Origin: Candidatus Omnitrophota bacterium
GTDB lineage: Bacteria > Ratteibacteria > UBA8468 > B48-G9 > JAFGKM01
Length of the DNA stretch: 35,686 bases
Direction of reading: 5' to 3'
Assembly (NCBI GenBank): GCA_003644395.1
Contig: QNCF01000001.1
Location: 1 to 35,686 of the forward strand
The notes beneath the pieces are model-generated. The model was not told the DNA's origin, did no database searches, and saw only the letters and a program-made list of their open reading frames with translations. Shown here piece by piece: positions 1,874 through 26,202 of this stretch; position 1 is the first letter of the stretch, and each line of letters starts with the position of its first letter. The position numbers and the translations under genes were made by a program.

Positions 1874-1874
1874 T

Positions 1875-4090: not shown

Positions 4091-4111
4091 TGGTTAAAAA
4101 AGGGGGTAATT

Positions 4112-5437: not shown

Positions 5438-5450
5438 AAAGGAAGAAAAA

Positions 5451-6812: not shown

Positions 6813-6823
6813 TGGAGGAAAAG

Positions 6824-8200
6824 ATGGAATTAAGAATTTTAATTATTAAACCACCAAAACAATACCTTTCTGAAAAGGAGAGTGAAAAAGGTTATTGGGG
6901 ATTTGTAAGGTGTAAGAAGGATTATGAGGAGGAAAAAGAAAATATAAATAAGGAATTTAAAAATCTGGTCGGATCAATTAAAAAAGAAGGTATAGAGGCA
7001 AATCTTCTGCCAGCAATAGAAGTTGAAAATATAAGTGATTTATTAAAAAAAGAGAAAGAGATTAAAAAATCTGATGTAAATATAGTCTTAACAATATCCT
7101 GGGGTGGATGGTATTCCTGTGGAGATTTAATACATGGAATAGTTGCTTTATCAGATTATGTGATTTTCTATGATAGTTTTAAGGAGAATATATATGCGGG
7201 AACATTATTTAATCCACCTGCTTATAAATTGCTTGAAAAAAATGGACTTTCAGAAAAAATTTTTCTTGTGGAGGGAGATAAAGAGAAGATAAAAATTATT
7301 CTGAGAGCAATCTATTCATTAAAGAAAATTTCATCTTCAAATCTTGTATGTGTTGGCCCAATGAATCCACTGTTTGGAGGATGGTTTTCTTTTAAAAAAG
7401 GGACTGAAACTTTCGGGTATAAAACTGTATTCTACACATACGATGAATTTGTTGAGGATTTCAATAATTTCATGAAAGATAAGGATAAATGTAAAGAAGC
7501 AAAAAGAGTGATTGAAGAATTCATATCAAACTCAGAAGGAGTTATTGAACCAACAGAAGAAAAACTTCTCAGGGCGGGAATATACTACCTTGTTTTAAAG
7601 AAATATGTGGAGGAAAATGAATCTGATTGGATAACAGTAAACTGCTGGGGTAAACTTATTGAGACAACAGAATCCACACCATGTTTTGCATTTTCAAAAT
7701 TTAATGATGATGGAATAGTTGCAACATGTGAAGCCGACCCAACTGCCATGATTACCCATTATCTTATGAGACATATTTCCGGAAAACCAGCATTTTTTAA
7801 TGACCCAACTGTAAATGAAAAAGATGGAACACTTATACTTGCCCACTGCACCTCTCCAACAAAACTTCTTGGATTCAGTAAACCTCCATTTTCTTATCAA
7901 GTGAGAACACACCATGAATCAAATTATGGAGCAACTCCAAAACTTATATTTAAAGAAGGTAATGTGACAGTAACTGGATTATCTTTTGATATGGAGAAAA
8001 TGCTTATTTTAAAAGGAGAAGTTATTGGCAGTCCTGATTTAAGGATATGTCGGTCTCAGGTGGAGGTAAAAGTGAATAATCCATCAGAAATACTTGAGGA
8101 CTGGCAGGGTTTCCACTGGGTGCTTGTGTATGGAGACTATACTGAAGAGATGGAGATAATCTGCAAGATAAAGAAGATAAAAGGAATTGTTTATAAATAA
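6824..8200 (+). CDS. AraA/FucI-superfamily isomerase-like protein, paralog 4 (Asp-type)
   Basis: The track ORF starts at ATG 6812, which overlaps the upstream TAA. ATG 6824 (MELRILII) sits 5 nt after GGAGG and is the better start. Core motifs: ITVNC, TPC-x14-CEAD-x21-D (AFFNDP), LAHCTSP, ICRSQVEVKV, GFHWVLVYGDY. Confidence 0.7.
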   Translation: MELRILIIKPPKQYLSEKESEKGYWGFVRCKKDYEEEKENINKEFKNLVGSIKKEGIEANLLPAIEVENISDLLKKEKEIKKSDVNIVLTISWGGWYSCGDLIHGIVALSDYVIFYDSFKENIYAGTLFNPPAYKLLEKNGLSEKIFLVEGDKEKIKIILRAIYSLKKISSSNLVCVGPMNPLFGGWFSFKKGTETFGYKTVFYTYDEFVEDFNNFMKDKDKCKEAKRVIEEFISNSEGVIEPTEEKLLRAGIYYLVLKKYVEENESDWITVNCWGKLIETTESTPCFAFSKFNDDGIVATCEADPTAMITHYLMRHISGKPAFFNDPTVNEKDGTLILAHCTSPTKLLGFSKPPFSYQVRTHHESNYGATPKLIFKEGNVTVTGLSFDMEKMLILKGEVIGSPDLRICRSQVEVKVNNPSEILEDWQGFHWVLVYGDYTEEMEIICKIKKIKGIVYK

Positions 8201-8210
8201 GGAGGAGAAA

Positions 8211-9536
8211 ATGAAAGTAAGTATCCAGCCTGTAAATTTAATACCACCTCAAAAAGATATCTCTCAACTTCCAGTTTTAAGGGTGGAGACATGGATAAAG
8301 GGGCCAAAAAAACCAAGAAATTTAAAAAGAATAAAAGAGATACCACCGGAAGATGTAAGTATTGAAAAACTCTGTGAAAAGTTTGACTTTTTGGAAATTC
8401 TTCCTCCCGAAAATATCAGAAAAGTAAGCGATATTGATGGACTTAAAAGGGATGTATCTGCTTATATCATAAGCGGTTATGACCTTGCATTAGCAGGGGA
8501 GATAGCTAAACTTGGAAAGCCAGTTTTACCTTACTGGGATAACTGGGGATATGCATGGAATGGAAGATGGATAAAGGAAGCCAGTGATGAAGCTGGTGGA
8601 GTATGTTTCGTCCCATTTGGTTCTGAAGATATTGAGAAAATTATAAGAGTTTTAAGAGCATATACCTTCATAAGGGAAATGAGAGTATTATATATAGGAG
8701 ATATACCTTCAAACAGTGTTAAAGATGCAAATTATGATTTTACAGACCTTGAAACCAGATTTGGAATACAGTTTATCCACCTGAATTTTGATGATTTATT
8801 AAAAGCAGTTGAAAAAATAAGTGATGAAGAGAGTGGAAAAATAGCAAATCTCTGGAAAGAAAATGCAGAGATTCTTGATGGAAGAGAAAAAAGACTTAAA
8901 GATTATGCAAAAATATATTTGGGATTGAAAAAATTACTGGAGGAATACAATGCCAATGGTTTAACAGTTGATTGTGCTTTTTTACCGAATGTTGAACTTG
9001 TCCCATGTTATTCTTTTGGAATTCTGATAGATGAAGGGATACCATGTGGATGTGAAGGAGATACATCTGCTCTTTTGGGAATGAGCATACTTATGGGTTT
9101 ATCAGGAAAATCTGCATTAATGGGAAACTTATTTGAAAATAATACACATGATGATATTGAAAACAATGTAATTGTAATAAACCATGATGTTGTCCCTCCT
9201 TCTATGGGAGATGGGAAAGAAAAGATAAAATTGAGAGATTTCCATGCATCTAAAAAAGGGCTTACAGGATTTGTAAAACTTAAGGAAGGTGAGAAAGTAA
9301 CTATTGTTGGAATGGACAGGAAAGCAAGAAGAATCTGGTATAGCGAAGGCGAAATTTTATGGACAGAAGATACAGTCCATTGCAGAACAAGTATCGGTAT
9401 AAAAGTAAAAGATGCAAAAAGAATTGGAAAAGAAAGTTTTGGTCATCATCAGGCAATCTCTTATGGAAACCTATGTGATGAAATTGAAATGCTTGGAAAA
9501 ATATTTAAAATAGAAACCATAAATTTAGGAAAATGA
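8211..9536 (+). CDS. AraA/FucI-superfamily isomerase-like protein, paralog 5 (Asn-type)
   Basis: The track ORF starts at TTG 8187. ATG 8211 (MKVSIQP) follows GGAGGAG. Core motifs: LTVDC, VPC-x14-CEGD-x21-N (SALMGNLFE), INHDVVP, VHCRTSIGIKV, GHHQAISYGN. Confidence 0.7.
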   Translation: MKVSIQPVNLIPPQKDISQLPVLRVETWIKGPKKPRNLKRIKEIPPEDVSIEKLCEKFDFLEILPPENIRKVSDIDGLKRDVSAYIISGYDLALAGEIAKLGKPVLPYWDNWGYAWNGRWIKEASDEAGGVCFVPFGSEDIEKIIRVLRAYTFIREMRVLYIGDIPSNSVKDANYDFTDLETRFGIQFIHLNFDDLLKAVEKISDEESGKIANLWKENAEILDGREKRLKDYAKIYLGLKKLLEEYNANGLTVDCAFLPNVELVPCYSFGILIDEGIPCGCEGDTSALLGMSILMGLSGKSALMGNLFENNTHDDIENNVIVINHDVVPPSMGDGKEKIKLRDFHASKKGLTGFVKLKEGEKVTIVGMDRKARRIWYSEGEILWTEDTVHCRTSIGIKVKDAKRIGKESFGHHQAISYGNLCDEIEMLGKIFKIETINLGK

Positions 9537-9547
9537 GGAGGGGGAAA

Positions 9548-10858
9548 ATGGAAAAGGCGAAGGTAAAAGTTGTATTTCCAGCAGTTGAAAAAGGGCATCC
9601 TACCTGGCCATATATAAATTATGATGTTGAGAAAAGGGCAAAAGATGTGATGAGTATTCTGGAAAAGCAATTGCCTGAAATTGAATTTTCTTACCATGTT
9701 ATTTATGAAAAAGAGAAGGCAAAAAAATTGGTTGAGGAAGAAAAGGGAAGATATGATGGATATTTAGTCTATATGACATCAATGTGGACAGAAATACCGG
9801 AAACAATGGCGAAGATGGGAATCCCTTTAATTGTTGCAGATGAAATCTATTCTGGCTCTGGAGGATTGCTCAGAACAAACTCACTTGTAAAAAAAGAAAA
9901 TTTACCTGTTGTCTGTATTGGCTCTTCAAATTTCAATGATATTATAAAGGCTGTAAAATTATTTTCTGTAATGAAGAGGATGAGAGAATCAAAAATTCTT
10001 GTTGTTGCAGATGGGGAATCATGGGGAAGCAGCAATAGAAAGATAAAAAAGATAAAGGAAATTTTTGGAACAGATGTGATAAGAATGACTTCAGAGGAAT
10101 TAAATTCATATTATAAAAAAGTTGATAAAGAAAAGGCAGAAAAATATAAGGATAAATGGATAAAAGAAGCGCTGAAGGTTGTTGAACCCACAGAAGAAGA
10201 GATATTAAAATCAGCAAAAATGCATCTGGCAATTAAAAAAGCAATGGAAGATAAGAAAGCAGATGCAATAACAATTGATTGTCTTGGACTCTATTATTCC
10301 GGTAAACTTTTTGCTTATCCATGCCTTTCTTTCTTTGAATTAAATAATGAAGGTTCAACAGGTGTATGTGAGGCAGATTTAGATTCTGCAGTAACACAGC
10401 TTTTAATAAGGTATTTAACAGGAAGACCCGGTTATGTTTCTGACCCTGTCATTGATACCGCAACAAACCAGATAATTTATGCTCACTGTGTGGCAACCAG
10501 TAAAGTTTATGGCCCTGATGGTTTAAGCAATCCATATATAATACGTTCACATGCAGAAGACAAAAAAGGTGCATGTGTCCAATCACTATTACCGACAGGG
10601 GAGACAGTAACAACAGTTAAAGTGAGTTCCTTAGATAAAGCATTCTCTATACATACAGGTAAAACAATTGGGAATGTTGAGGATGAAAAGGGATGCAGAA
10701 CAAAACTGGCAGCAGAAGTTGATGCAGAAAAAATACTTAATAATTTCCATTTTGAAATATTTTCCTGGCACAGGGTAACTTTTTATGGAGATTACAGAAA
10801 AGAAATGATGGATCTTGCAACTCTTTATGGACTTAAAATTTATCAGGAAGATAAATAA
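9548..10858 (+). CDS. AraA/FucI-superfamily isomerase-like protein, paralog 6 (Asp-type)
   Basis: The track ORF starts at ATG 9533, which overlaps the upstream TGA. ATG 9548 (MEKAKVKVV) follows GGAGGGGG. Core motifs: ITIDC, YPC-x14-CEAD-x21-D (GYVSDP), YAHCVAT, KGCRTKLAAEV, SWHRVTFYGDY. Confidence 0.7.
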   Translation: MEKAKVKVVFPAVEKGHPTWPYINYDVEKRAKDVMSILEKQLPEIEFSYHVIYEKEKAKKLVEEEKGRYDGYLVYMTSMWTEIPETMAKMGIPLIVADEIYSGSGGLLRTNSLVKKENLPVVCIGSSNFNDIIKAVKLFSVMKRMRESKILVVADGESWGSSNRKIKKIKEIFGTDVIRMTSEELNSYYKKVDKEKAEKYKDKWIKEALKVVEPTEEEILKSAKMHLAIKKAMEDKKADAITIDCLGLYYSGKLFAYPCLSFFELNNEGSTGVCEADLDSAVTQLLIRYLTGRPGYVSDPVIDTATNQIIYAHCVATSKVYGPDGLSNPYIIRSHAEDKKGACVQSLLPTGETVTTVKVSSLDKAFSIHTGKTIGNVEDEKGCRTKLAAEVDAEKILNNFHFEIFSWHRVTFYGDYRKEMMDLATLYGLKIYQEDK

Positions 10859-10874: not shown

Positions 10875-11639
10875 ATGGATAGATTAATAGCAGGTATCCA
10901 GCTTTACACATTAAGGGGATTTTGCAAAGATTTAAAGGGGATAGAGGAGACTTTTAAAAAGATAAGGAAAATAGGATACAGGGCTGTACAGATTTCAGGT
11001 ATAGGAGAGATTGATTTTAAAGAGTTGAAGAAAATCCTTGATGATAATGGATTGTATGCATGTTCAACTCACACACCTTATGAGAGAATAATAAATGAGA
11101 CTGAAAAAGTTATTGAAGAGCATAAAATACTGGGATGTGAAGGTATTTTCTGCCCTGGGCTTCCAAAGGAATTAAGAAAAGGGAAAGAAGGATATCTGGA
11201 AGCAGCGAAAGAGTTCAAGAAAGTTATCAAAAAGATAAAGAAGGAAGGTCTTATCCTTGGATACCATAACCATGGCGTGGAATTTGAAAGATTTGGTAAA
11301 AAGACAGGACTTGAAATTTTACTTGATGGATGTAAAGAACTTGAAGTTGAAATTGATACATACTGGGTGCAGTATGGAGGAGGAGACCCTGCATACTGGA
11401 TAGAAAAATATTCAGGTAGAGTAAGCCAGATACATTTAAAGGATATGGGAATAATTGATAATAAACAGGTTATGCCTCCAATCGGTGAAGGGAATTTAAA
11501 CTGGGAAAGGATTATAAAAGCATGCAGGAAGGCAAAAGTTAAATATTGTCTTGTTGAGATTGATGAACCAACAATAGAACCATTTGAAGCAATTGAAAGG
11601 AGCCTTAAATTTTTGAAAAAATTTGGAATAAAGCCCTAA
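10875..11639 (+). CDS. Xylose-isomerase-like TIM-barrel protein (sugar phosphate isomerase/epimerase family)
   Basis: 254 aa, SD GGAGGGG. Typical family blocks: IQLYTLR near the N-terminus, GYHNHGVEF, VEIDTYW, IHLKD, LVEIDEP (metal-ligand-like E/D/H/E pattern). It is the last gene of the + operon. Confidence 0.75.
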   Translation: MDRLIAGIQLYTLRGFCKDLKGIEETFKKIRKIGYRAVQISGIGEIDFKELKKILDDNGLYACSTHTPYERIINETEKVIEEHKILGCEGIFCPGLPKELRKGKEGYLEAAKEFKKVIKKIKKEGLILGYHNHGVEFERFGKKTGLEILLDGCKELEVEIDTYWVQYGGGDPAYWIEKYSGRVSQIHLKDMGIIDNKQVMPPIGEGNLNWERIIKACRKAKVKYCLVEIDEPTIEPFEAIERSLKFLKKFGIKP

Positions 11640-12823
11640 ACTTTATTTTTTAATTTTTTGATAAGAACAGGTATTATTTCAAAGAGGTCTCCAACAATTC
11701 CAAGATTTGCCACTTTAAAGATTGGTGCATCCGGGTCTTTATTTATGGCTATTATATAATCTGAAGTCTGCATCCCTGCAAGATGCTGGATTGCTCCTGA
11801 TATTCCACATGCTATATAAACTTTTGGTTTAACAGTCTTTCCAGTCTGACCAACCTGATGAGGATATCCTATCCATCCTGCATCAACTGCTGCACGTGAA
11901 GCCCCAACAGCGCCACCAAGCAATTCAGCAAGTTCCCATATCATTGAAAAGTTTTTACCATCCCTCAATCCCCTGCCTCCAGATACTATTATTTCTGCCT
12001 CCTGTAAATCCACAACATTTTTTGTCATTTCCCTTTTTATAATCTTCACCCTTTTATTTACAGAAAATGATGAAAATTCTTCAATTATCAATTTCCCATC
12101 AGGGTTATCCTTAATTTTTGCTTCTTCAATAATTTTTGGTCTTATTGTTGCCATCTGGGGTCTGTGGTCTCTGCATACTATCTTTGCCATAAGATTCCCA
12201 CCAAATGTTGGCCTTATCTGTACAAGGAGTTTACTTTCATTATCAATATCTATTCCTGTACAGTCAGCTGTAAGCCCTGTTCCAATCCTTGCAGCGACTG
12301 ATGGAATGAAAGACCTTCCAGCCATTGTTGCTGAAGCAAGCAAGATAGAAGGTTTATATCTTTCAATAAGCTGGGAAAGGATATCAATATATGGTTCTTC
12401 CTGGAATTCTTCAAGTGAATCATCTTTCACAATATAAACTTTTTCCGCTCCCCTTTTTATAAGTTCCCTTCCCATCTCCTCAACATTCTTTCCGCCAATA
12501 ATAACCCCTGATACTTCTTCACCCAGTTTTTCTTTCAATTTCAAACATGCATTTAAAAGTTCAAAAGAGACAGATAACAATTTTCCTTTCTTTTGTTCTG
12601 CAAAAAACCATATCCCTTTATATTTTGATATATCTTTTTTCCTTTCCTTCTCTACAATTAAAATTGCATTTTGAGGACACTCCTTAACACATATACCGCA
12701 AAGCCTGCAATTCTCATTTATTACAATCTTTCCCTCTTTTTCCTCAATTCCACCGAATGGACATTTCTCAATACAGATTCTGCAAAGATTACATTTTTCA
12801 TAAAGAATTTTTATTCCCATCAC
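11636..12823 (-). CDS. etfA: Electron transfer flavoprotein alpha subunit with an N-terminal 2x[4Fe-4S] ferredoxin domain
   Basis: 395 aa. Two CxxCxxCxxxCP motifs (CNLCRICIEKCP, CRLCGICVKECP) are followed by the EtfA body: VSGGRGL, ASRAAVDAGW, QVGQTGKTVKPKVYIACGISGAIQH. There is a 4-nt start/stop overlap with etfB. Confidence 0.85.
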   Translation of the reverse strand: MMGIKILYEKCNLCRICIEKCPFGGIEEKEGKIVINENCRLCGICVKECPQNAILIVEKERKKDISKYKGIWFFAEQKKGKLLSVSFELLNACLKLKEKLGEEVSGVIIGGKNVEEMGRELIKRGAEKVYIVKDDSLEEFQEEPYIDILSQLIERYKPSILLASATMAGRSFIPSVAARIGTGLTADCTGIDIDNESKLLVQIRPTFGGNLMAKIVCRDHRPQMATIRPKIIEEAKIKDNPDGKLIIEEFSSFSVNKRVKIIKREMTKNVVDLQEAEIIVSGGRGLRDGKNFSMIWELAELLGGAVGASRAAVDAGWIGYPHQVGQTGKTVKPKVYIACGISGAIQHLAGMQTSDYIIAINKDPDAPIFKVANLGIVGDLFEIIPVLIKKLKNKV

Positions 12824-13611
12824 AATATACCCTGTTTTTTAAGTTCTTTTAAAATCTCATCTGCCATTTCTTCTGCACTCCCGCTTAATTTTCTTCCCTC
12901 TTTCTTCACCGTATGTTTCCAGATATCAATAACCCTTGTCGGTGAACCATCCTGTCCAAATCTCTCCTCATCTCCACCAATATCTTTTGCACCCCATTTT
13001 TTTATCTCTGCTTTTTTTGATTTTAAAAGCCCTTTAAGTGATGGTATCCTTGGCTCATTTATTTCTTTAACAACTGTAATTAAAACAGGTAGAGGACTTT
13101 TCAGTATTTCGTAATGGTCCTCAAGCAATCTTTTACATTCAATCTGGTTATTCTCTATGTTTATTATCTGACTCACATATGTGATAAATGGGATTTTCAA
13201 ATTTTCAGCAATTTCAGGCCCAACCTGTCCTGTACTCCCATCCATTGCTTCTTTCCCACATATGATGATATCAAAATTACCTATTTTTTTAATTGCACAG
13301 GAAAGTGTATATGAAGTAGCCAGTGTATCACTTCCAGCAAATTTCATATCTGTAAGTAATATAGCATCATCCACACCCATTGCTATTGCCTCCCGTAATG
13401 CACTTTCTGCCTGAGGAGGACCCATTGATATGGCTATTGTCTCTCCACCAAATCTCTCCTTCAATCTCAAACCCTCTTCAATTGCATACATATCATATGG
13501 ATTTATAATTCCTTTCACACTATCCCTCTTTATCCTTTTTGTCTCATTATCAATTTCAACTTCAAAAGTCTCAGGAACCTGTTTGATACAGACTATTATT
13601 CTCATCGTCAC
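12820..13611 (-). CDS. etfB: Electron transfer flavoprotein beta subunit
   Basis: 263 aa with RIIVCIKQVP, AISMGPPQA, KFAGSDTLATS and CGKEAMDGSTGQVGP. There is a 4-nt overlap with the upstream MocA gene. Confidence 0.85.
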   Translation of the reverse strand: MTMRIIVCIKQVPETFEVEIDNETKRIKRDSVKGIINPYDMYAIEEGLRLKERFGGETIAISMGPPQAESALREAIAMGVDDAILLTDMKFAGSDTLATSYTLSCAIKKIGNFDIIICGKEAMDGSTGQVGPEIAENLKIPFITYVSQIINIENNQIECKRLLEDHYEILKSPLPVLITVVKEINEPRIPSLKGLLKSKKAEIKKWGAKDIGGDEERFGQDGSPTRVIDIWKHTVKKEGRKLSGSAEEMADEILKELKKQGIL

Positions 13612-14585
13612 TTAACTGATTTGTAAACCATCTCTGTTAATCTTACAACTTTTTCAATAACTGAAAAATCTGTATTTGGTTTTTTATTATTCCTTATGCA
13701 TTCTATAAAATCCTCTGCTGGAGTTTTAACAGAAGGAGATATTTTCCTTATAGGGGAGGGGGATTTCTCACCATTGATATGTATATAGGAATCTTCTCCT
13801 GCACTGCTAACTTTAATAACTCCCTTTTCTCCCCATATAAGCAGTGCTTCTCTAAATCCAGGGTCTATCCCCAGAATTCCAAAATTTCCTATAGCACCCT
13901 CTTTAAATTTCACTATGAATGATGTGTTTATATCCACCTTCATACCACGGTAATCAATGAAAGAATATACATCAGAAGGTGTCAAATCTGTAAGGAAAAA
14001 TAACATTGCAAGGAAATGGCTTCCTGAATCCATAAGCTGTCCGCCACCTGATATTTCAGGGTCAAACCTCCATGTTCTTTTTGTCCTTTTTATAAGTTCA
14101 ATCCATCCCTGAGCAAGGTATCCACATACAAAAATTATCTTTCCAATCCTTCCATTTTTAATCTCCTCTCTTGCTCCAAGGAAAGTTCCGAGATAATGCC
14201 TCTGGTATCCAACAACAAACACCTTTTTCTTTTCCTCAAGTAATCTTTTAACTTCAGATAGTTCTTCAGAATTTATAACTGCAGGCTTTTCAACAAGAAT
14301 ATGTAAATTATTCTCTAAGGCAAGTTTAATCTGTGGAAAATGGTATTTATGTGGTGAGCATATTACAACTCCATCAATATTGCCACTTTTAATAATTTCT
14401 TCCTCTGAAGAATATATCCTTACATTCCCTGCATCTTTTGAAAACCTTTCAGAATTCCCTTTATCAGGGTCAAAAACTCCTGTTATTTTTACTCCATCAA
14501 TATTCTTCAGTACCTCCAGATGTTTATATGCTATTGAACCACACCCTATAAATCCAATCCTTATTTCATCATTTTTCTGGCACAT
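13608..14585 (-). CDS. Gfo/Idh/MocA-family NAD(P)-dependent oxidoreductase
   Basis: 325 aa with the N-terminal Rossmann motif IGFIGCGSIA, the EKP motif (ILVEKPAV) and a typical C-terminal alpha/beta domain. The start overlaps the upstream gene by 17 nt. Confidence 0.8.
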   Translation of the reverse strand: MCQKNDEIRIGFIGCGSIAYKHLEVLKNIDGVKITGVFDPDKGNSERFSKDAGNVRIYSSEEEIIKSGNIDGVVICSPHKYHFPQIKLALENNLHILVEKPAVINSEELSEVKRLLEEKKKVFVVGYQRHYLGTFLGAREEIKNGRIGKIIFVCGYLAQGWIELIKRTKRTWRFDPEISGGGQLMDSGSHFLAMLFFLTDLTPSDVYSFIDYRGMKVDINTSFIVKFKEGAIGNFGILGIDPGFREALLIWGEKGVIKVSSAGEDSYIHINGEKSPSPIRKISPSVKTPAEDFIECIRNNKKPNTDFSVIEKVVRLTEMVYKSVK

Positions 14586-17094
14586 CTTTTATAACCAATT
14601 TTCCTTCAGCATATGCTTTTCTAACTCTATCACAGTATTTACATTCCCCTTCAGGATGGCAGAGGATGATAGTTGGGTCTTTCCTCAACTCTTTTATTAT
14701 ACTCTTTACCAGTTCCCTTGCCCTCATTATCTTTACACGTGCTTTCCCAACCTTTCCCTCTTTCACTATTCCACTCTTTTTCCAGATGGGCTCCATCACT
14801 TCAAGCAATCTTCCAAACCCTGCTGTTGGCCAGTTTGTTAAATGGACAACCTTTACCTTTCCATTATCAAAAATACGGACATCTCCTTCTTCCAGATTTG
14901 ATGGTTCCATCAATTGCTGTGCATAATGGATTGTTGTATTTGATTCATGCCCAACACCAAGCAATAAAATATATCCATTCCATCTTACCAATTTATCAAT
15001 TGGGCTTCCAGGCCCAAGTGCAGGGCCAACTTTATGGTCTTTTGTTATTTCAACTGCTTTCCCACCTATAGCTGCTACTGAATGGGTTGGATGACGGCTT
15101 CTCACCGCATCTTTTCTCTTTCTGAAAACTTCTGTTAAAGTCCCAACAAAAGATGGGGAAGTCTCAGGGTCAAATACACCACCTACATATACTCTCCCTT
15201 CAAGTGTATGGGTTGGAACAATAACTGTTCCCTTTTTCCCAACAGTCTCTATCAAAGCATCTATAACTGTATTTGCTCCACCTTCAACATAACCGAGACT
15301 GCGGAGTGAAGAGTGGACCATCACAATATCTCCTTCCTTCAAACCAAGTTTCTTCAAATCCTTCTTTAAATCCTCCTTTGTAAATCCTTTCTCCTTAAGT
15401 CTCCTCTTCACATTTAATGTTTCAAGTAAATGGTTTATCCTTCCATACTCATCCTTCACCACTTTCTTTATCTCTTTTTTCAGAAATGAAATGTAATCTT
15501 TGAAATGGGAATGTTCTGCTTTTGGAACCAGTTTTAATAATGAATCAAAAGCCTCCATCTCCCTTTCCTTCATATAACCAATTTTCCTCTCAATATCATC
15601 CAGTAAAGATTCCTTATCCTGAATTTTATCCAATTTTGAGATATATTTTTCAATCTCACTGATTATCCTTACTTTCGCCCTGGAACACATCTCCTCAGCA
15701 AGCCATCGTGCTTCTTCTTTTCCGGCATTGGCAATAAAGTAAGCATATATAGCTGAAATTATTCCTGTTCTTTTCAAAGTTAAAGGGTCAATCTGGTCCG
15801 GTCTATCATATGAAGTATGATAGGTGAGGTAATCTATTCCTGTACTTAAACTTGGTGTGGGTACACCAACTGATCTATCAGAAAGGATTCTGCTTTCCGG
15901 TTCAATATATTCTCCTTTTATCCATCTGAAAGGTACTTCACTTTCTGGAGAATCTTCCCTTGAAAATTCCTGTGAGGATTTTTCCACTATCCATTCAAGT
16001 AAGTCATCAACAAAAGAGGGAGTATCCTGGTGGGCATGTGTCCTTCCAACTTTTAAAATTATATTTTTCTTTTTAGGGTCTATACCAACACAATCAAGGT
16101 TAAGTCCTGCTATTGTATTTTGAATTTTATCTTTATTATTTGCCAGATAAGAGGATATTCCAAAAAATTCTGCTCCAAGAAGGAATCTTATACTCCTTTT
16201 GGGAGGAGGCAATTTCCCCTTTTTAATCAATCTGTTCAAACACCTTGCAACTTCAAGTAATACTGCACAGCCAGAAGCATTATCCACTGCTCCAGGCTCA
16301 TTTAAATGTGCAACAAGTAAAATCTCTTCCTTCCCTTTCCCTGGTATTACACCTGTAACATTCCCTGTTACCCCTTCGTATATCTCACTATCTACATTTG
16401 CAAAAACTTTTACTTTTCCATATTTTTTAATTAAATTTTCAAGATATTCTCCGTCCCTTGGAGAGATTGAAAAAGCAAAACAATTTTTCTCAAATTTCCA
16501 TCCAAGTAAAAAATGCCACCTTACAGAATCAGGGATTTTGTATAGTTTATTTGATTTAAGATATAAATACCTTGCATCCTGTATTATACCAATAGCACCT
16601 TTTTCCACTGCCAATCTCATTATTGACCTTGCCAACTGGTGAGTAAAGATGATTTTTCCCTTCACATCAATACCTTCATAATCTTTTTCTTTCATTCCAT
16701 CAGGAATAAATACCACCTCTGCCTCTATTCCACCCTTTGGAGTTGGAGGCGAAAGAGAAATGACTGAACAGCGATTTTCACTGTATCTTGCCAAAACTTT
16801 CCCCTTTGCTTCTTCAGGATAAGTGATTATCAATTCACCTTCTTTAATTCTCCATGCAGAAGGCATAATATAATCTCCATATTTTGTTATTCCATCAGCA
16901 GGATAATCCAGTATCTCCACTCCACTTAAACCACTTTCTTTCAAATCATCCATACAGTATTTTGCAGCTTCATAATATCCTGGAGAATAGACCTCACGGT
17001 TAAAACAGAAAATTTCATATACAAGGCGGTAACATCTTTCCCTTGAAAACTCCAGTTCTATTGCATCATACAGATTTTTAAACTCTCTTTCCAT
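14569..17094 (-). CDS. Fusion protein: M28-like (aminopeptidase-like, DUF4910-type) N-terminal domain, helical linker, and AAC(3)-family N-acetyltransferase C-terminal domain
   Basis: 841 aa. N-terminal half carries M28-like motifs: LLVAHLNEPGAVDNASGCAVLLEVAR, LLGAEFFG, LNLDCVG, YHTSYDRPDQID. C-terminal ~270 aa match the aminoglycoside 3-N-acetyltransferase family: DIVMVHSSLRSLGYVEGGANTVIDAL, GTVIVPTHT, SRHPTHSVAAIG, GHESNTTIHYA. The tail contains CHPEGECKYC. Confidence 0.7.
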   Translation of the reverse strand: MEREFKNLYDAIELEFSRERCYRLVYEIFCFNREVYSPGYYEAAKYCMDDLKESGLSGVEILDYPADGITKYGDYIMPSAWRIKEGELIITYPEEAKGKVLARYSENRCSVISLSPPTPKGGIEAEVVFIPDGMKEKDYEGIDVKGKIIFTHQLARSIMRLAVEKGAIGIIQDARYLYLKSNKLYKIPDSVRWHFLLGWKFEKNCFAFSISPRDGEYLENLIKKYGKVKVFANVDSEIYEGVTGNVTGVIPGKGKEEILLVAHLNEPGAVDNASGCAVLLEVARCLNRLIKKGKLPPPKRSIRFLLGAEFFGISSYLANNKDKIQNTIAGLNLDCVGIDPKKKNIILKVGRTHAHQDTPSFVDDLLEWIVEKSSQEFSREDSPESEVPFRWIKGEYIEPESRILSDRSVGVPTPSLSTGIDYLTYHTSYDRPDQIDPLTLKRTGIISAIYAYFIANAGKEEARWLAEEMCSRAKVRIISEIEKYISKLDKIQDKESLLDDIERKIGYMKEREMEAFDSLLKLVPKAEHSHFKDYISFLKKEIKKVVKDEYGRINHLLETLNVKRRLKEKGFTKEDLKKDLKKLGLKEGDIVMVHSSLRSLGYVEGGANTVIDALIETVGKKGTVIVPTHTLEGRVYVGGVFDPETSPSFVGTLTEVFRKRKDAVRSRHPTHSVAAIGGKAVEITKDHKVGPALGPGSPIDKLVRWNGYILLLGVGHESNTTIHYAQQLMEPSNLEEGDVRIFDNGKVKVVHLTNWPTAGFGRLLEVMEPIWKKSGIVKEGKVGKARVKIMRARELVKSIIKELRKDPTIILCHPEGECKYCDRVRKAYAEGKLVIKDVPEK

Positions 17095-17861: not shown

Positions 17862-17889
17862 ATTTTAAACCATTTAAAATTTTTGTCAA
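17862..17889 (-). promoter_or_regulatory. Possible sigma70-type promoter for the kinase-to-etfA sub-operon
   Basis: Read on the minus strand: TTGACA (17889-17884), a 16 nt spacer, then TAAAAT (17867-17862), ending 19 nt before the kinase ATG. The -35 hexamer contains the TGA stop of the upstream gene. No SD lies between the -10 and the ATG. Confidence 0.35.
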
Positions 17890-18947
17890 TCCTTGCTTCT
17901 TTTAACTTTATATGGTAAAAGCCATCTTTTCCTTCTTATAAATGGTTCGTTTTTAAACCTCTGCTCAACAATACCTGCTTTTTCTAAGAAATTGAAACAA
18001 CTTCTCATGCAACCTCTGGAACCGCATATTCCGTAACTTCCTCCAACTCCCCATTTCTGTAAATAGGCATGCCCTTCAATTATATAACCTGACGGGAATT
18101 CTTCTGTCTTCCTCCATTTACCTGTGGAAAGACTCCAGCAGAATTTGTAAGCAGCTTCTTCTGAAAAATTCTGCTTCCTTGCATCTATGTTCCATCCTGG
18201 AAAGGATTTGTGGATGAAAGGAGAGACTCTTGAATCACCACCGTGATAACTTAAAGTGCATTTTCCAAGGTCAATATCTGCCCATTCATAAGTATAATTT
18301 TCTATCTTTATACTTACTTTTTTTCCTTCTTTTATGTGTGGTATTGCATTTGAAGGACAACCTTTAACACATTCCATACACCTTTTGCATATACTTCCAG
18401 GTTTTACAAGAGGGTCTGGTTCAACTTCAAGGTCTGTGATTATAGCATGCAATCTCTGTCTTGGCCCATATTTTTTTGTCAAAAAAACTTTGCTCCATCC
18501 AATCTCTCCAAGGCCAGCACAGACTGCTGCTATTCTTATTGCAAGATGGACATCTGGAGGTGGCTGATTTTCTCTCAATGGCTTTCCAGGTGGTTTCGCT
18601 TCAGGAACTCCTGAATAGTAAGGAACTGCTTCATATCCATAATCTTCAATGAAACAGGCAAGTTCATATAATGGGAGCTGGATGAAAAATGAGTTTAAAA
18701 GTCCATGGTAATCAAAATAAGTATAGGATACCCAGTTTGTCCCCTCCTCAATTCCGCGCCAGCCTCCCCTTAATATCCTTTTCCCCACAACTATGACTGT
18801 CTTTGCTTCTGGAAAAATACTTTTTGGATGCATATCTACTGGAGCATTTTCAAATCTTTCAATATTTGCAAAACCTATAAGGTCAAGTCCAAGTGAATAT
18901 GCAACCTCTCTTATTTTTTCTTTTGTCAATCTTTTTCCCATTTCCAC
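17886..18947 (-). CDS. QueG / reductive-dehalogenase-superfamily Fe-S protein (single module, long C-terminal extension)
   Basis: 353 aa. The block AAVCAGLGEIGWSKVFLTKKYGPRQRLHAIITDLEVEPDP, followed by CKRCMECVKGCPSNAI, matches the AGLGxxG...GxxxR...CxxCxxCxxxCP core of epoxyqueuosine reductase and RdhA-like proteins. Further Cys (CTLSYHGG, CGSRGCMRSC) could form a second cluster. Confidence 0.65.
   Translation of the reverse strand: MEMGKRLTKEKIREVAYSLGLDLIGFANIERFENAPVDMHPKSIFPEAKTVIVVGKRILRGGWRGIEEGTNWVSYTYFDYHGLLNSFFIQLPLYELACFIEDYGYEAVPYYSGVPEAKPPGKPLRENQPPPDVHLAIRIAAVCAGLGEIGWSKVFLTKKYGPRQRLHAIITDLEVEPDPLVKPGSICKRCMECVKGCPSNAIPHIKEGKKVSIKIENYTYEWADIDLGKCTLSYHGGDSRVSPFIHKSFPGWNIDARKQNFSEEAAYKFCWSLSTGKWRKTEEFPSGYIIEGHAYLQKWGVGGSYGICGSRGCMRSCFNFLEKAGIVEQRFKNEPFIRRKRWLLPYKVKRSKD
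18774..18830. repeat. 57-bp near-identical tract shared with 19601-19657 (copy A)
   Basis: tatccttttccccacaactatGactgtctttgcttctggaaaaatactttttggatg. It is 56/57 identical to copy B and encodes HPKSIFPEAKTVIVVGKRI on the minus strand. The flanking sequence is diverged. Confidence 0.9.
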
Positions 18948-19759
18948 ACAGACCTCTTTCTGAATTTTTCATTGAATAAATTTTTTATTCTTTTCTTCTT
19001 CTCAAGATGAGAAAGGCATGTTCTTGAACATAAAGCAGCTATTCTGTCTGGTTTTGCATCTTCATAATAAATATTTGGAAATACACCATTTTTACATATC
19101 CTGCACTTTTCCCATTCAATTTCTGCAACGACCATTTCCTTTCCACATATTTTTATTTTTCTTTCTTTTCCACCTATTGCATTAAGAGGACATATCCTCA
19201 CACATTCTTTACATAAATCACATATATTTTCTTTTTTTATCGGGTCTGGCTCTATCTCAGCATCGGTAATAATTGCCTGGAATCTCTGTCTTGGGCCAAA
19301 TTCAGGAGTTAAAAATATCCCGCAATATCCAATCTCTCCAAGACCTGCTCTTACTGCTGCATCTTCTATATCAATCAAAACATTTGGAGCAGGATACCCT
19401 TTCTTCACAGGTATCCCCATCGGTGGAGTATCTGGAGGAATATTCGGTAAAGGGACTGCTTCATATCCTCTATCTTCAAGAAATTCACTTATTTTAAAAG
19501 TCACCATTGCAAGGAACCTGTCTTCAAGCCAGATTCTTCCGTAAAATGAATAAATGCCAAACTGTGTCCCTTCCTCAACACCTCTCAGCGTCCCTCTTGT
19601 TATCCTTTTCCCCACAACTATAACTGTCTTTGCTTCTGGAAAAATACTTTTTGGATGGTGCTGTTTTTCAATCCCATCAAATCTTTCAATATTTGCTATT
19701 CCAATTAAATCTGCTTTCACCTTCCTTGCATACTCTTTCAATTCTTCTTTATCAATCAT
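18926..19759 (-). CDS. QueG / reductive-dehalogenase-superfamily Fe-S protein (single module, short form)
   Basis: 277 aa with AAVRAGLGEIGYCGIFLTPEFGPRQRFQAIITDAEIEPDP, CDLCKECVRICPLNAI, CRICKNG and CSRTC. It has a 4-nt overlap with the upstream gene and a 22-nt overlap with the downstream gene. Confidence 0.65.
   Translation of the reverse strand: MIDKEELKEYARKVKADLIGIANIERFDGIEKQHHPKSIFPEAKTVIVVGKRITRGTLRGVEEGTQFGIYSFYGRIWLEDRFLAMVTFKISEFLEDRGYEAVPLPNIPPDTPPMGIPVKKGYPAPNVLIDIEDAAVRAGLGEIGYCGIFLTPEFGPRQRFQAIITDAEIEPDPIKKENICDLCKECVRICPLNAIGGKERKIKICGKEMVVAEIEWEKCRICKNGVFPNIYYEDAKPDRIAALCSRTCLSHLEKKKRIKNLFNEKFRKRSVWKWEKD
19601..19657. repeat. 57-bp near-identical tract shared with 18774-18830 (copy B)
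   Basis: tatccttttccccacaactatAactgtctttgcttctggaaaaatactttttggatg. The single difference from copy A (19622 vs 18795) is a synonymous Val codon change. Confidence 0.9.
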
Positions 19760-21972
19760 TCCCTCCTCCCCTTAAATGGGCAAACTCTTATACATTCCTC
19801 ACATATATTTAAATGCCTTTTCTGCACTCCCCATTTCACTTTACTCACATTCCTTGCAATTTTCTCAATATCTATATTTTCAGAAATATTTATCTCAGGG
19901 TTTATCCCATAATATTTTGGCCCTTCCTCACCACTTAAACAATATCTTTTTGCCATGTCACATTTATAAAGGTCAATAACAGGATATTTAAAATCTATCC
20001 CTTCAAATTCAAAACTCACCGTTTCATTTTTTATCGCATCTGTTGGGCATGATGAAATACATAAATTACAGTCTTCACAATAATTTTTTCCATTATAGAG
20101 AGGGTCATCTTCAAAAAATCCATCTGTTAAAACAAAGATAAATCTCTGTCTCTGTCCAAACTTTTCAGTAATTATTACTCCATTCTTTCCAATATAACCG
20201 ATACCTGACAGGAAAGCCTCAAAGTTCCCTGTCCTTGCATCTGGGAGATAACCTCTTGAATTCTTTACATATGAATAAAAACCGGTGATTGAATGGGTGA
20301 GAGTAGCTTTATATCCATTTCCTTCAAGGAACTTTACAAGATTCAATCCAATATCCTTTAAAAGAAGGAGTGTCTCATAATGAGCATAGGCATAAGGGCT
20401 GACTGTTTCAGCAGGGGTTACCTTTGCAGTATCAATACATGCATCAGGGAAATGAAGACCGATTGCTATTGCAGATTTTCCATCCTCCAAATAATCTTCA
20501 AATTTTTTAATCTTTATTTTCCTTTCCCTGATTTCAGGAATAAATGGCCCATAAATCTTTCCCTTATCCAAAATCTCATAATAATTTTCTGGAATAAAAT
20601 TTCCCATCTTTTTTATAAATCTCTCATACCTTTCTTTTGTGAAAAATCCAACAAGGTCTGCTCCCTGATTTAAACAGAAATCTTTAATATCTTCCTTCCT
20701 CAAATTTCTCCTTCCTTTCTTACTTTCATATCTTACATTCGGAAAATCTGCTCCTGTAATAACTGTGGAAAAATAATAGTTTTTAACTTTACCTGTTATT
20801 TCCTGACCTATGAGTGAATGCGGGATATTGTAGGATGTGATTGAAGAATAGCCAGATATATCAAAAAGATGAGCAATTTTGAAAGACAAAAGGTTTAATC
20901 TTCTTTCAACTGAAGATAAAAGGTCAGGAGTTTCATTATCCACCTTAATCCCTATTGAGATTACGCTCTTCCCATCAGGTAAATGGTATTCGGGATGGAA
21001 ATAATTTGAATTTCTGAAATTATCAACAGGACAGGAGACAAAAATATCAATGAAGTTTTCTTCAACCATCTTTAAAATTTCATTTTTTAAAATTTCCGGT
21101 GATTTTTTTATCTCCTTTTTTCTCCTTGGAGCATCTGTATAATCTTTCTGATAGTACCTTTTCTGAGGAACCATACAGTATTTAAGGCACATCCCTTCTT
21201 CCCCACCTTTTATTCCATATTTTTCAAGATTTTCAAGAATTACTTCCTCATCAACTTTTTCAGGGATTGGAAGTGAAAGATTTAAAAGGAAATTCTCAGC
21301 CCAGGCACATCTCCACTTATTTATATCAGGGAATTCAAAAATCTTTCCCCCTATTTCAATTCTGTTTATCTTTTTCACTTCCTTTCTGAAAGCATCTGTT
21401 GGACAGTGCCTTACACATTCCATACACCTGTCACATAATCTTTCTCCTTCATACATTGGGTCAGGTAAAAGTTCAGCCTCTGTAATAACTGAAATCACTC
21501 TCTGCCTTGGGCCAAATTCAGGAGATAAAAAAAGACCGCTCCATCCAATCTCACCGAGACCAGCACAGACTGCTGCATATCTATGGGCAAGGTCTGGAGC
21601 AAAGGAAATTTTAAGGTCTTTATAAGGATAATATCTCCATATATTGGTTGAAGCAATAGGCAATGTTTTATATCCCTTTTTTTCAAGGAATATCGCCATT
21701 TTGAATGCCAAATCATCAAGAATTGGATTCATTGCTGCACTTTGCGTGCGATAAGGACCCATATCATGTGGGGTGGGATATCCTCCAAGTTCAACAGCAC
21801 AATCAAGATGGTGTATACCCATAACTATCACACTTTTTGCTTCAGGTAGCAGACCCTTTGGACTCATCCTTAAAGGTGCATTCTTAAATCTCTCAACAGG
21901 AGCAATTCCAACAAGGTCTGCTCCAAGTTTTTTGGCATAATCCTTAACTTCACTTGTAAGTTTTTCCTCCAT
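19756..21972 (-). CDS. Internally duplicated QueG / reductive-dehalogenase-superfamily Fe-S protein (two modules in one polypeptide)
   Basis: 738 aa. N-module: KKLGADLVGIAPVERF, AAVCAGLGEIGWSGLFLSPEFGPRQRVISVITEAELLPDP, CDRCMECVRHCPTDAF. C-module: NQGADLVGFFTKERY, LSGIGYIGKNGVIITEKFGQRQRFIFVLTDGFFEDDP, CEDCNLCISSCPTDAI, CEECIRVCP. Confidence 0.65.
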   Translation of the reverse strand: MEEKLTSEVKDYAKKLGADLVGIAPVERFKNAPLRMSPKGLLPEAKSVIVMGIHHLDCAVELGGYPTPHDMGPYRTQSAAMNPILDDLAFKMAIFLEKKGYKTLPIASTNIWRYYPYKDLKISFAPDLAHRYAAVCAGLGEIGWSGLFLSPEFGPRQRVISVITEAELLPDPMYEGERLCDRCMECVRHCPTDAFRKEVKKINRIEIGGKIFEFPDINKWRCAWAENFLLNLSLPIPEKVDEEVILENLEKYGIKGGEEGMCLKYCMVPQKRYYQKDYTDAPRRKKEIKKSPEILKNEILKMVEENFIDIFVSCPVDNFRNSNYFHPEYHLPDGKSVISIGIKVDNETPDLLSSVERRLNLLSFKIAHLFDISGYSSITSYNIPHSLIGQEITGKVKNYYFSTVITGADFPNVRYESKKGRRNLRKEDIKDFCLNQGADLVGFFTKERYERFIKKMGNFIPENYYEILDKGKIYGPFIPEIRERKIKIKKFEDYLEDGKSAIAIGLHFPDACIDTAKVTPAETVSPYAYAHYETLLLLKDIGLNLVKFLEGNGYKATLTHSITGFYSYVKNSRGYLPDARTGNFEAFLSGIGYIGKNGVIITEKFGQRQRFIFVLTDGFFEDDPLYNGKNYCEDCNLCISSCPTDAIKNETVSFEFEGIDFKYPVIDLYKCDMAKRYCLSGEEGPKYYGINPEINISENIDIEKIARNVSKVKWGVQKRHLNICEECIRVCPFKGRRE

Positions 21973-24785: not shown

Positions 24786-25225
24786 TTCTCAAGTTTTTTT
24801 ATTTTATTAACCCTCCGCAGATGCCTGCCTTTAAGGAAAGGTGTCTCAAGAAAAACTTTTGTTATTTCCCATGCAAGTTCCTTTGCAATTATACGCCCAC
24901 CAAATGTAATAACATTTGCATCATTATGTTCTCTTGCAAGTTTGGCAAGGAAAGTTGAATTGCATAAAGCAGCCCTTACACCTTTAAATTTATTTGCTGT
25001 TATGCTCATTCCAATACCTGTTCCGCATATAAGGATACCCCTTTCAATCTCTCCATCAGAGATACTCTTTGCAACTTTCACTCCATAATCAGGATAATCA
25101 ACTGCTTTTTTAAATTCCGGCCCAAAATCAATCACCTCATATCCTTCTTTTTTAAGTTTATCTTTAAGATATTCTTTTATCTCAAATCCAGCATGGTCAC
25201 TTGCTATCCCTACTTTCATAAACAT
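24782..25225 (-). CDS. rpiB: Ribose-5-phosphate isomerase B (RpiB/LacAB family)
   Basis: 147 aa with MKVGIASDHAGFEIKEYLK and ILICGTGIGMSITANK. The true start may be the second Met, at 25219. Confidence 0.85.
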   Translation of the reverse strand: MFMKVGIASDHAGFEIKEYLKDKLKKEGYEVIDFGPEFKKAVDYPDYGVKVAKSISDGEIERGILICGTGIGMSITANKFKGVRAALCNSTFLAKLAREHNDANVITFGGRIIAKELAWEITKVFLETPFLKGRHLRRVNKIKKLEK

Positions 25226-26202
25226 ATCCTTTTTAAAACAATTTTTTCAATTTTTTCTTTTATTATGTCCCTTATCTGCCTGTAAAAAGAAAAATCTTTA
25301 CCTGCAGGGTCAGGAATATCAAGAACAGTTATCTTTTCTTCTGCTTCTGGTAAAAAACTTATTATTTTCTCCTTCTGCCTTTCTTCCATTACAAATATAA
25401 TATCTGCTTCTTCAACCTTTCTGAAATCAAGTGGCTGGGAGAAATCCTTTTCAATATTTATCCCTATCTCACTCAAAACTTTTCTTGTCTTGTCAGGTAT
25501 CTCCCCCTTATTTATAATTCCAACACCTGCTGATTCAACCTTTATCTTCAATTTATCTTTTATAATATCTTTAAGAATAGCCTCTGCAATTGGACTTCTG
25601 CATGAATTTCCCTCACATACAAATAAAATATTTCCTCTTAAAAGTTTCATCTTATCATTTACAAATTTCCATATGGTTGATTCCCTCCCATCCGTCCTTC
25701 CTCCATCAACAACTATATCAACTCTTTCCTTTAACTCTTCATCAATCTCATCAATGCAGGATGGAGAGTTTTCACCTGATAAATTTGCACTTGTGGAAGC
25801 AAGAATTTCAAAATGTTTCAGAACTTCAAGAAGAAATGGATGGTCTGGAATCCTTATCCCTATCTCATTGCTGGATGAGACAATGAAATTTATTTTTCTT
25901 TTTGCTCTGAATATAAAAGTATACCTTCCTGGCCACTTTTTCTTTACAAACTCTTCCTTCTTTCCATCAATTTCTGCAAACTTTTTTGCTTCTTCTATAT
26001 CTCTCACAAACCCTGTAAGTACTTTTTCTCTCTTTCTTCTCTTTACTTCAAATATCCTTTCTTTGGATAAATCATTCCATCCATCACATATTATCCCATA
26101 AACAGTATCTGTTGGAGAGATTACAATTTTCCCTTCTTTCAATCTCTTCACAATATAAGGGACAACATCCAAACCTTTATCTTTAATCTTTATCAATTCC
26201 AT
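25216..26202 (-). CDS. Fusion of an L-threonylcarbamoyladenylate synthase-like (Sua5/YrdC/TsaC) domain and a low-molecular-weight protein phosphatase domain
   Basis: 328 aa. N-terminal domain: ISPTDTVYGIICD, RIPDHPFLLEVL, STSANLSGE. C-terminal domain: P-loop ILFVCEGNSCRSPIAEA (CX5R-S) and the Asp loop DIPDPAG. Confidence 0.75.
   Translation of the reverse strand: MELIKIKDKGLDVVPYIVKRLKEGKIVISPTDTVYGIICDGWNDLSKERIFEVKRRKREKVLTGFVRDIEEAKKFAEIDGKKEEFVKKKWPGRYTFIFRAKRKINFIVSSSNEIGIRIPDHPFLLEVLKHFEILASTSANLSGENSPSCIDEIDEELKERVDIVVDGGRTDGRESTIWKFVNDKMKLLRGNILFVCEGNSCRSPIAEAILKDIIKDKLKIKVESAGVGIINKGEIPDKTRKVLSEIGINIEKDFSQPLDFRKVEEADIIFVMEERQKEKIISFLPEAEEKITVLDIPDPAGKDFSFYRQIRDIIKEKIEKIVLKRICL

Follow-up and report, generated by a model that had tools for sequence, protein, structure and literature searches.

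The window analysed here is the whole of a 35,686-nt stretch of DNA (positions 1 to 35,686, forward strand, of contig QNCF01000001.1 in assembly GCA_003644395.1, Candidatus Omnitrophota bacterium, Ratteibacteria lineage), and it carries on its minus strand three overlapping genes, here called A, B, and C, that encode relatives of the epoxyqueuosine reductase QueG and of the reductive dehalogenases (RdhA). The positions and product lengths that the original prediction gave for them (738, 277, and 353 amino acids) proved exact. The A stop codon and the B start codon share 4 nt (ATGA), and B overlaps C by 22 nt if C is read from its GTG start or by 16 nt if it is read from the ATG at 18941. The ATG is the likelier start, giving a protein of 351 aa, because it has the better-spaced Shine-Dalgarno sequence and fits the N-termini of homologous proteins. 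GGAGG-type Shine-Dalgarno sequences precede every start, and the three genes are translationally coupled within a 13-gene, nearly gapless minus-strand string that runs from 26202 to 11636. The top promoter-like site on the minus strand of the region, a consensus match only, lies in the gap past C and might be where the transcription unit of A-B-C ends, with the genes from the kinase to the electron-transfer flavoprotein (Etf) forming a separate unit; this is only a hint, because sigma-70-like sites were no more numerous in the region than in shuffled sequence (52 compared to 56 ± 5.8).

Table 1. Positions of genes A, B, and C, of the predicted parts of A, and of the promoter-like site.
Feature	Coordinates	Strand	Description	Basis
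Gene A	19756..21972	minus	738 aa; member of a conserved ~740-aa family	open reading frame, homologues, AlphaFold2, Foldseek
A N-module	21103..21972	minus	residues 1–290; predicted complete core + Fe-S domain	alignments, PceA match
A middle segment	20698..21102	minus	residues 291–425; predicted vestigial cobalamin-binding core	hhalign, AlphaFold model
A C-module	19759..20697	minus	residues 426–738; predicted complete core + Fe-S domain	alignments, QueG 5d08 match
Gene B	18926..19759	minus	277 aa; single module, putative small partner of C, nearly always directly upstream of it	
Gene C	17886..18947	minus	353 aa from GTG start; single module	
Sigma-70-like consensus match TTGACA-16-TAAAAT	17862..17889	minus	in the 43-nt gap from C to the kinase gene	

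Alignment of the four complete modules encoded by these genes revealed invariant AG(L/I)G..G, G(P/Q)RQR, T..D-P, and CxxCxxCxxxC motifs, in agreement with the earlier proposal of four RdhA/QueG-like modules with shared core motifs over three adjacent genes. The N-module and C-module of A are 27% identical (E = 2e-33; hhalign probability 100%), bearing out the internal duplication that had been proposed for this protein, and B and C are 48% identical (E = 3e-66). Profile–profile comparisons between all module families gave probabilities of 100%.

The segment that joins the two modules of A had been described as a linker of ~130 aa. Our comparisons indicate instead that residues 291–425 are a fifth, degenerate copy of the cobalamin-binding core: they matched residues 2–173 of the N-module (hhalign probability 98.9%, E = 2.5e-17) and have the same order of helices and strands as the N-module core in the AlphaFold model, and they lack the AGLG and GPRQR motifs, the Cys motifs, and the ferredoxin domain. 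Mean column conservation in the A family was 0.73 for the N-module, 0.44 for the middle segment, and 0.575 for the C-module; columns at least 90% conserved numbered 100 in the N-module and 5 in the middle segment, and the most conserved part of A was the N-module core (0.75). From the profile match, the modelled order of secondary structure, and the lower conservation of residues 291–425, we assign to A the architecture [core 1 + ferredoxin domain 1]–[vestigial core]–[core 2 + ferredoxin domain 2].

To place the three proteins, we searched curated profiles, sequences in the PDB, and structure models. For each of A, B, and C, the two best NCBIfam models were RDH (TIGR02486) and QueG (TIGR00276), and no unrelated ferredoxin-domain family came up; Pfam returned only generic 4Fe-4S domains and a sub-threshold match to DUF1730. 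The best PDB matches by sequence and profile were PceA (7e-16), QueG (2e-10), and NpRdhA (5e-6), with the N-module of A matching PceA at E = 1e-11 to 7e-16 and the C-module (residues 428–653) matching QueG 5d08 at 2e-10. AlphaFold2 models were very confident for A (pLDDT 95.4, pTM 0.95) and for C (pLDDT 93.3, pTM 0.91), and for each of these models all 46 PDB chains found by Foldseek at E ≤ 1e-3 were NpRdhA, PceA, the RDH complex, or QueG, followed by the B12-binding proteins MMACHC/CblC. Because the profile, PDB, and Foldseek matches all lead to RdhA/QueG and then to CblC, assignment of A, B, and C to the class III cobalamin/[4Fe-4S] reductase fold is solid at the level of sequence and model, as the earlier placement in this superfamily, made with the substrate left open, had anticipated.

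Membership of either established family is a different matter. Scores on the RDH model were 84.4 bits for A, 45.3 for B, and 47.9 for C, all short of the curated cut-off of 160.35, and scores on the QueG model were 70.2, 35.8, and 31.6 bits, respectively, compared to a cut-off of 200. In our reference set, E. coli QueG scored 510.5 bits on TIGR00276 and a QueG from a Verrucomicrobiota locus (L025) scored 302 bits. These true QueGs also reached 35–45 bits on the RDH model, indicating that the RDH scores of B and C fall in the range of superfamily cross-hits. The Pfam Dehalogenase domain (PF13486) gave no match to A, B, or C at E ≤ 1. A twin-arginine (TAT) motif of the RRxFLK type was absent from the first 60 residues of each protein, and none contains a hydrophobic or transmembrane segment (maximum 19-residue hydropathy, KD19, 1.37), suggesting that A, B, and C are soluble and cytoplasmic. 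No small membrane ORF (open reading frame) resembling RdhB lies nearby, the sole unannotated ORF of at least 80 aa between 17.0 and 22.6 kb being antisense and inside A. Judged by curated-model scores and profile comparisons, by the missed cut-offs, and by the absence of a HEAT domain, TAT signal, RdhB, and Dehalogenase domain, none of the three proteins is a QueG or a classical respiratory RdhA. Both this conclusion and the lack of a TAT signal and an RdhB-like anchor had been foreseen in the original prediction.

The cysteine pattern also sets the group apart. In QueG, eight Cys residues ligate two clusters, with C188, C191, C194, and C247 holding the distal cluster and C198, C214, C240, and C243 the corrin-proximal one (PMC5175355). 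The A N-module, A C-module, B, and C families, together with a related family of small proteins, D, keep seven, in the pattern C-x2-C-x2-C-x3-C ... C ... C-x3-C, in which the first position of the last motif, occupied by Cys240 in B. subtilis QueG, is not a conserved Cys. The residues concerned are Cys180/183/186/190, Cys222, and Cys262/266 in the A N-module and Cys632/635/638/642, Cys671, and (Cys724)/727/731 in the A C-module. Cys724 is an equivalent of Cys240 in the window's own A C-module, and only 9 of the 20 family members have such a residue. Part of the first Cys motif has degenerated in the B family, B itself has a CxxC at the position of the isolated Cys, and the second Cys is replaced by Asp in some C homologues. 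This pattern suggests that the proximal cluster is held by only three conserved Cys.

The spacing from the isolated Cys to the final C-x3-C varies widely, from 21 residues in B to 39 in A-N, 55 in A-C, and 82 in C, where a highly conserved insert separates Cys230 from Cys313-x3-Cys317 and the protein ends in a basic tail; the C-terminal ends of both B and C are rich in Lys and Arg. The homologous stretch of QueG, the Fd-insert, contacts the substrate. Because the stretch in C is long and almost invariant, and by analogy with this insert, C is likely to be the substrate-binding partner of a B-C pair, in which the insert would form the substrate pocket.

Comparison with characterized relatives defines what is shared and what is not. 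Like QueG (TIGR00276; PDB 5D08, 5D6S), the modules carry AG(L/I)GxxG...G and the first CxxCxxCxxxCP and have a bacterial-ferredoxin domain after an alpha/beta cobalamin-binding core, and the proteins are likewise cytoplasmic, monomer-sized, and free of a TAT signal; QueG was also one of the top structural hits for C (E = 3e-9) and the top sequence hit for the C-module of A. Unlike A, B, and C, QueG has a C-terminal HEAT-like tRNA-binding domain (PMC5175355): the last ~120 residues of E. coli QueG have no counterpart in any module in our alignment, and no HEAT-like helical bundle is present in the models of A and C. The catalytic D-Y-H motif and the Asp134-type loop residues above the corrin of QueG have been defined (PMC4646009); we saw no D-Y-H at the position aligned with E. 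coli QueG, where at 22–25% identity the alignment is unreliable. Further differences from QueG are the seven rather than eight conserved Cys, the multi-module or heteromeric organization, and the regulator and transporter neighbourhoods described below.

The catabolic RdhAs (NpRdhA, PDB 4RAS/6ZXU; BhbA; JtRdhA) are likewise cytoplasmic and soluble, have the same core and ferredoxin module, and carry a vestigial, cobalamin-free core duplicate that mimics the dimer partner of PceA (PMC10463259). NpRdhA was the top Foldseek match of A (E = 1e-10), but its whole-chain TM was ~0.27 with an rmsd above 20 Å, so the arrangement differs. A also differs in having two complete modules in addition to the vestigial one, and A, B, and C lack a PDOR-type reductase domain, score below the RDH cut-off, and have no aromatic-degradation context. 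The respiratory enzyme PceA (PDB 4UQU; RDH complex 8Q4H) shares AVxAGLGExG...FGPRxR...CxxCxxCxxxCP with the N-module of A, of which it is the best sequence match, and its homodimer is the likely analogue of both an A pseudo-dimer and a B-C heterodimer. Respiratory RdhAs, in contrast to A, B, and C, have a TAT signal, RdhB, the Dehalogenase domain, a second CxxCxxxCP, and an organohalide-respiration cluster. The likeness to MMACHC/CblC (Foldseek probability 0.94–1.0) is at the level of the core fold alone, as these proteins have no ferredoxin domain and use flavin or glutathione.

Both A and C have many homologues elsewhere. A has 531 detected homologues, at 36–72% identity, nearly all of ~740 aa and covering 99–100% of A, and scanning a single genome for each species turned up relatives in 348 genomes. 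The 80 best of these 348 come from Omnitrophota, TA06, Ratteibacteria, Planctomycetota, Verrucomicrobiota, Kiritimatiellota, Lentisphaeria (including Victivallis vadensis), Spirochaetes, Armatimonadota, Anaerolineae, and many ruminant- and human-gut Clostridia; A relatives are spread over more than 10 phyla, gut Clostridia included. C has 2378 homologues, of which the 120 listed are 67–100% identical to it by BLASTP and come from WOR-3, Firmicutes, Chloroflexi, Armatimonadota, Phycisphaerae, and Ratteibacteria; the most distant of 17 aligned with MAFFT is 66% identical. A profile built from the four modules matched 378, 2040, and 7276 clusters (50% identity) at E ≤ 1e-30, 1e-10, and 1e-3, respectively. 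The A homologues are annotated as 'hypothetical protein' or 'epoxyqueuosine reductase', a near-identical GenBank entry of A is 'hypothetical protein [bacterium]', and relatives of C, too, are often named QueG. We found no paper describing the family, and the four groups of a cold-seep RdhA survey (PMC12219181) do not include it.

By sequence comparison, A, B, and C represent three separate orthologous families, and their modules, 27–48% identical to each other, are old paralogues; the closest orthologues in other phyla reach 72% identity for A and 87% for C. The original prediction had seen here a lineage-specific expansion, co-directional with a kinase, an acetyltransferase fusion, MocA, and Etf. 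The four homologous modules do lie side by side, and the neighbouring genes are indeed co-directional and tightly packed, but each protein is much closer to its orthologues in other phyla than to the modules beside it. Because each gene has widespread orthologues of its own, we do not regard the locus as a lineage-specific expansion, and a recent expansion linked to these neighbours is very improbable indeed. Of the window neighbours, the Ser/Thr kinase, the fusion of an M28/DUF4910 domain to an aminoglycoside N-acetyltransferase, EtfB, and the ferredoxin-EtfA protein have no homologue in 84 related loci, nor do the phosphoribosyltransferase, PabB/PabC, RpiB, and Sua5; only the MocA-type oxidoreductase recurs, in 5 of the 84. 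The co-directionality stands, and a functional link to kinase, fusion, and Etf, which it might imply, is not supported.

We examined gene order by calling ORFs in 74 A-centred loci and 72 C-centred metagenomic loci and classifying them with family hidden Markov models. A stood alone in 55 of the 74 A-centred loci, was accompanied by B and C in 10, and by the small family D in 11. B was called directly upstream of C in 50 of the 72 C-centred loci; 30 held only B-C, and 16 also contained A. Thus, A adjoins B-C in 14–22% of the sampled loci and each unit usually occurs alone. Two contigs, of 57 kb and 90 kb, carry B-C by itself. The same is probably true of L088, a 1.2-Mb contig in which the ORF caller had chosen an antisense ORF but a 288-aa gene, similar to B in size, lies directly upstream of C. 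The A-B-C order of the window occurs at L010, L026, L029, and L039 and, because it recurs in Omnitrophota, Planctomycetota/Phycisphaerae, and Ratteibacteria, is not special to the window's lineage. A and B-C are independent units, yet they lie side by side much more frequently than would be expected of unrelated genes.

Elsewhere the A operon also includes one or two members of family D, RdhA-like small subunits of ~300–350 aa that also have seven Cys (L007 3783-6727; L001 12174-14131; L014; L030), giving up to seven RdhA-type modules per operon. Arrays of the form A-D-X-(D)-B-C were seen at L001, L012–L014, and L030. Protein X (~343 aa), which lies next to D in the larger arrays and is absent from the window, was considered as a further RdhA/QueG-like module and rejected (hhalign probability below 1%; no Pfam or NCBIfam match). 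A recurrent neighbour family of 397 aa was also set aside, since by position it looks like an antisense ORF over B in high-GC loci.

Regulators are the commonest companions of these genes. An IclR or AraC regulator lies within two genes of A in 46 of 74 loci, IclR on the same strand immediately upstream and AraC divergent. When 277 non-redundant neighbours, each no more than two genes away from A or B-C, were sorted by Pfam family, they included 32 AraC, 29 IclR, 13 ABC permeases, 9 sugar-type substrate-binding proteins, 8 URO-D-like proteins, and 8 FAD oxidoreductases (PF12831, FAD_oxidored), with GH20, Zn-ADH, and MocA also recurrent; genes for queuosine, RdhB/TAT, or corrinoid proteins were not among the commonest families. 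The URO-D/MtaA-like neighbours (e.g., L137 1507-2559) belong to a family that includes corrinoid-dependent methyltransferases, so their association may be meaningful. At L099 (2824-9050), B-C is immediately preceded, on its own strand, by genes for the subunits of a 2-oxoacid:ferredoxin oxidoreductase (PFOR) and for a tandem universal-stress protein, and L096 has a matching pattern of gene lengths upstream of B-C; the PFOR subunits at L099 suggest reduced ferredoxin as electron donor. At L025, in a Verrucomicrobiota metagenome-assembled genome (MAG), the bona fide QueG mentioned above (18925-19893, minus strand) lies 6 kb from an A-D-X cluster, which shows that a genome may encode both a true QueG and a member of the A family.

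We think it somewhat probable that A, B, and C are cytoplasmic corrinoid/Fe-S reductases that would use low-potential electrons to act on a small molecule. The region would then comprise two separable, functionally linked units of one uncharacterized RdhA/QueG clade. A would be a single chain with two complete modules clamped round a vestigial core, a built-in pseudo-dimer comparable to the vestigial duplication of the catabolic RdhAs, and the translationally coupled B-C pair, always in the order B then C, would most likely form a heterodimer. In each module, electrons would enter at the distal [4Fe-4S] cluster from a ferredoxin (supplied, for example, by PFOR) or possibly, in this organism, from the ferredoxin-domain Etf, and would pass to the three-Cys proximal cluster, reducing a base-off corrinoid to Co(I), which would drive reductive cleavage of a C–X or C–O bond on a small molecule taken up by the cell. 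An IclR or AraC regulator next to the genes would control expression in most other genomes, where sugar-type ABC transporters and oxidoreductases that act on sugars are often close by. Such surroundings favour inducible catabolism over a housekeeping or respiratory role, and their carbohydrate-type character suggests a glycan- or plant-derived substrate.

Several observations weigh against this reading. Corrinoid binding in class III has no diagnostic sequence motif (PMC4646009), the Rfam and tRNA scans gave no hit in the window, a cobalamin riboswitch in particular being absent, and the 277-neighbour census showed no consistently adjacent B12-binding protein, corrinoid activase, or ferredoxin partner. 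The window itself has neither an IclR/AraC regulator nor a transporter beside A-B-C, which sit in a string with housekeeping genes. With one ligand of the corrinoid-proximal cluster missing, electron transfer may not follow the textbook redox chain. The heterodimer is argued from the order of B and C; candidate natural B-C fusions (ORFs of 624, 487, and 425 aa at L100, L144, and L136) were rejected as upstream ORF extensions in high-GC contigs. The high conservation of C (at least 66% identity across phyla among the homologues listed) is more typical of enzymes whose substrate is universal or macromolecular than of niche catabolic ones.

This last feature fits the idea that B-C, or all three proteins, are a non-orthologous epoxyqueuosine reductase or another reductase that modifies nucleic acids or nucleosides, for which the frequent naming of A- and C-type proteins as QueG, the basic tails of B and C, the housekeeping genes of the window (among them a Sua5/TsaC tRNA-modification gene), and queD/queE-like genes 7–9 kb from B-C at L088 could also be cited. 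Scores of 32–70 bits on TIGR00276, the missing HEAT-like domain, the unseen D-Y-H in the part of the E. coli QueG alignment that is unreliable, the coexistence with QueG at L025, and the flanking of B-C by AraC/IclR regulators, ABC transporters, and PFOR, with no queuosine gene among the commonest neighbouring families, make this quite improbable. Genuine cytoplasmic, catabolic rather than respiratory, reductive dehalogenases acting on natural organohalides would explain why RDH is the best NCBIfam model for all three proteins and PceA the best PDB sequence match, why TAT and RdhB are absent as in the catabolic RdhAs with their vestigial duplication, and why IclR or AraC regulators next door make the families look inducible. 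However, RDH scores of about half the cut-off or less, at cross-hit level for B and C, the unmatched Dehalogenase domain, neighbours that are sugar transporters, glycoside hydrolases, and sugar oxidoreductases rather than aromatic or halo-organic pathways, and the prevalence of the families in herbivore-gut Clostridia lead us to consider this decidedly unlikely.

A different kind of alternative is that the enzymes work without a corrinoid. Nitroreductase-fold relatives of the RdhA-like core bind flavin, and the core of A, B, and C could have lost cobalamin or bind flavin in its place, with chemistry at an open iron site or [3Fe-4S] form of the three-Cys cluster, or with the proteins serving only as an electron-transfer scaffold. 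The conserved loss of the Cys240 equivalent, a ligand of the cluster beside the corrin, is what such a change might produce; no corrinoid-handling gene is conserved nearby, and cobalamin-less vestigial cores are known in the superfamily (PMC10463259) and in A itself. We nonetheless consider this unlikely: AGLGxxG...GPRxR, the most conserved stretch common to PceA and QueG, is retained by all four complete modules but not by the vestigial copy, the next-best Foldseek folds are B12-binding MMACHC/CblC and not flavin nitroreductases, and conservation in A peaks in the N-module core, which would be unexpected for a decayed cofactor site.

Corrinoid-dependent reduction of a small molecule is the reading that we retain. 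To our knowledge, only two chemistries, dehalogenation and epoxide reduction, are established for the RdhA/QueG fold. The authors of a QueG structure foresaw further families that could not be found by motif (PMC4646009). As a tentative and rather unlikely extension, the proteins studied here may be class III B12 enzymes of a third functional type, neither dehalogenase nor QueG, with modular, cytoplasmic A pseudo-dimers and B-C-type heterodimers, a three-Cys proximal cluster, and an undescribed reductive C–O or C–X cleavage of a glycan or plant metabolite; in some phyla its operons would encode as many as seven modules, and it would be widespread, under IclR/AraC control, in uncultured anaerobes and herbivore-gut Clostridia. 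The clade is large, is separable from both known families, and is annotated as 'hypothetical' or wrongly as 'QueG', so surveys and annotations that count 'QueG' or 'rdhA-like' genes will misassign A-, B-, and C-type proteins. The putative three-Cys proximal cluster and the 2.5-module chain would be new variations on the class III redox chain. The adjacent ligand-sensing regulators, which should report the substrate, and the very confident structure models offer experimental handles, and Victivallis vadensis, seen here in a MAG, is a named and cultivable species that carries the family.

Other genes of the window may be noted briefly. EtfB and an EtfA with an N-terminal 2x[4Fe-4S] ferredoxin domain are encoded at 11636-13611 (minus strand); such a domain arrangement typifies Etf systems that bifurcate electrons or work at low potential, and the pair, not a conserved neighbour, is a plausible electron donor for A-B-C. 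An ABC importer of the BtuFCD/FecBCD type (Peripla_BP_2, FecCD, ABC_tran) at 115-2663 (plus strand), with 114 nt of the window upstream of it, could supply corrinoids or iron chelates. The acetyltransferase fusion at 14569-17094 (minus strand) is an 841-aa protein with an M28/DUF4910 peptidase-like part and an aminoglycoside 3-N-acetyltransferase part (PF02522, E = 2e-57), and at 25216-26202 (minus strand) a Sua5/YciO/YrdC protein of the TsaC type, a family of t6A tRNA modification, is fused to a low-molecular-weight phosphotyrosine phosphatase domain. Finally, an unusual array of six strongly diverged tandem paralogues of 459, 441, 463, 462, 449, and 441 aa (21–35% pairwise identity) occupies 2711-10858 (plus strand) and is followed by a xylose-isomerase-like TIM-barrel gene at 10875-11639; Pfam gave no match to them save a weak AraA_central for one copy, and the two copies read through (2711-4090 and 4112-5437) have a C-E-(E/G)-D motif, which we take to resemble that of AraA/FucI sugar isomerases.

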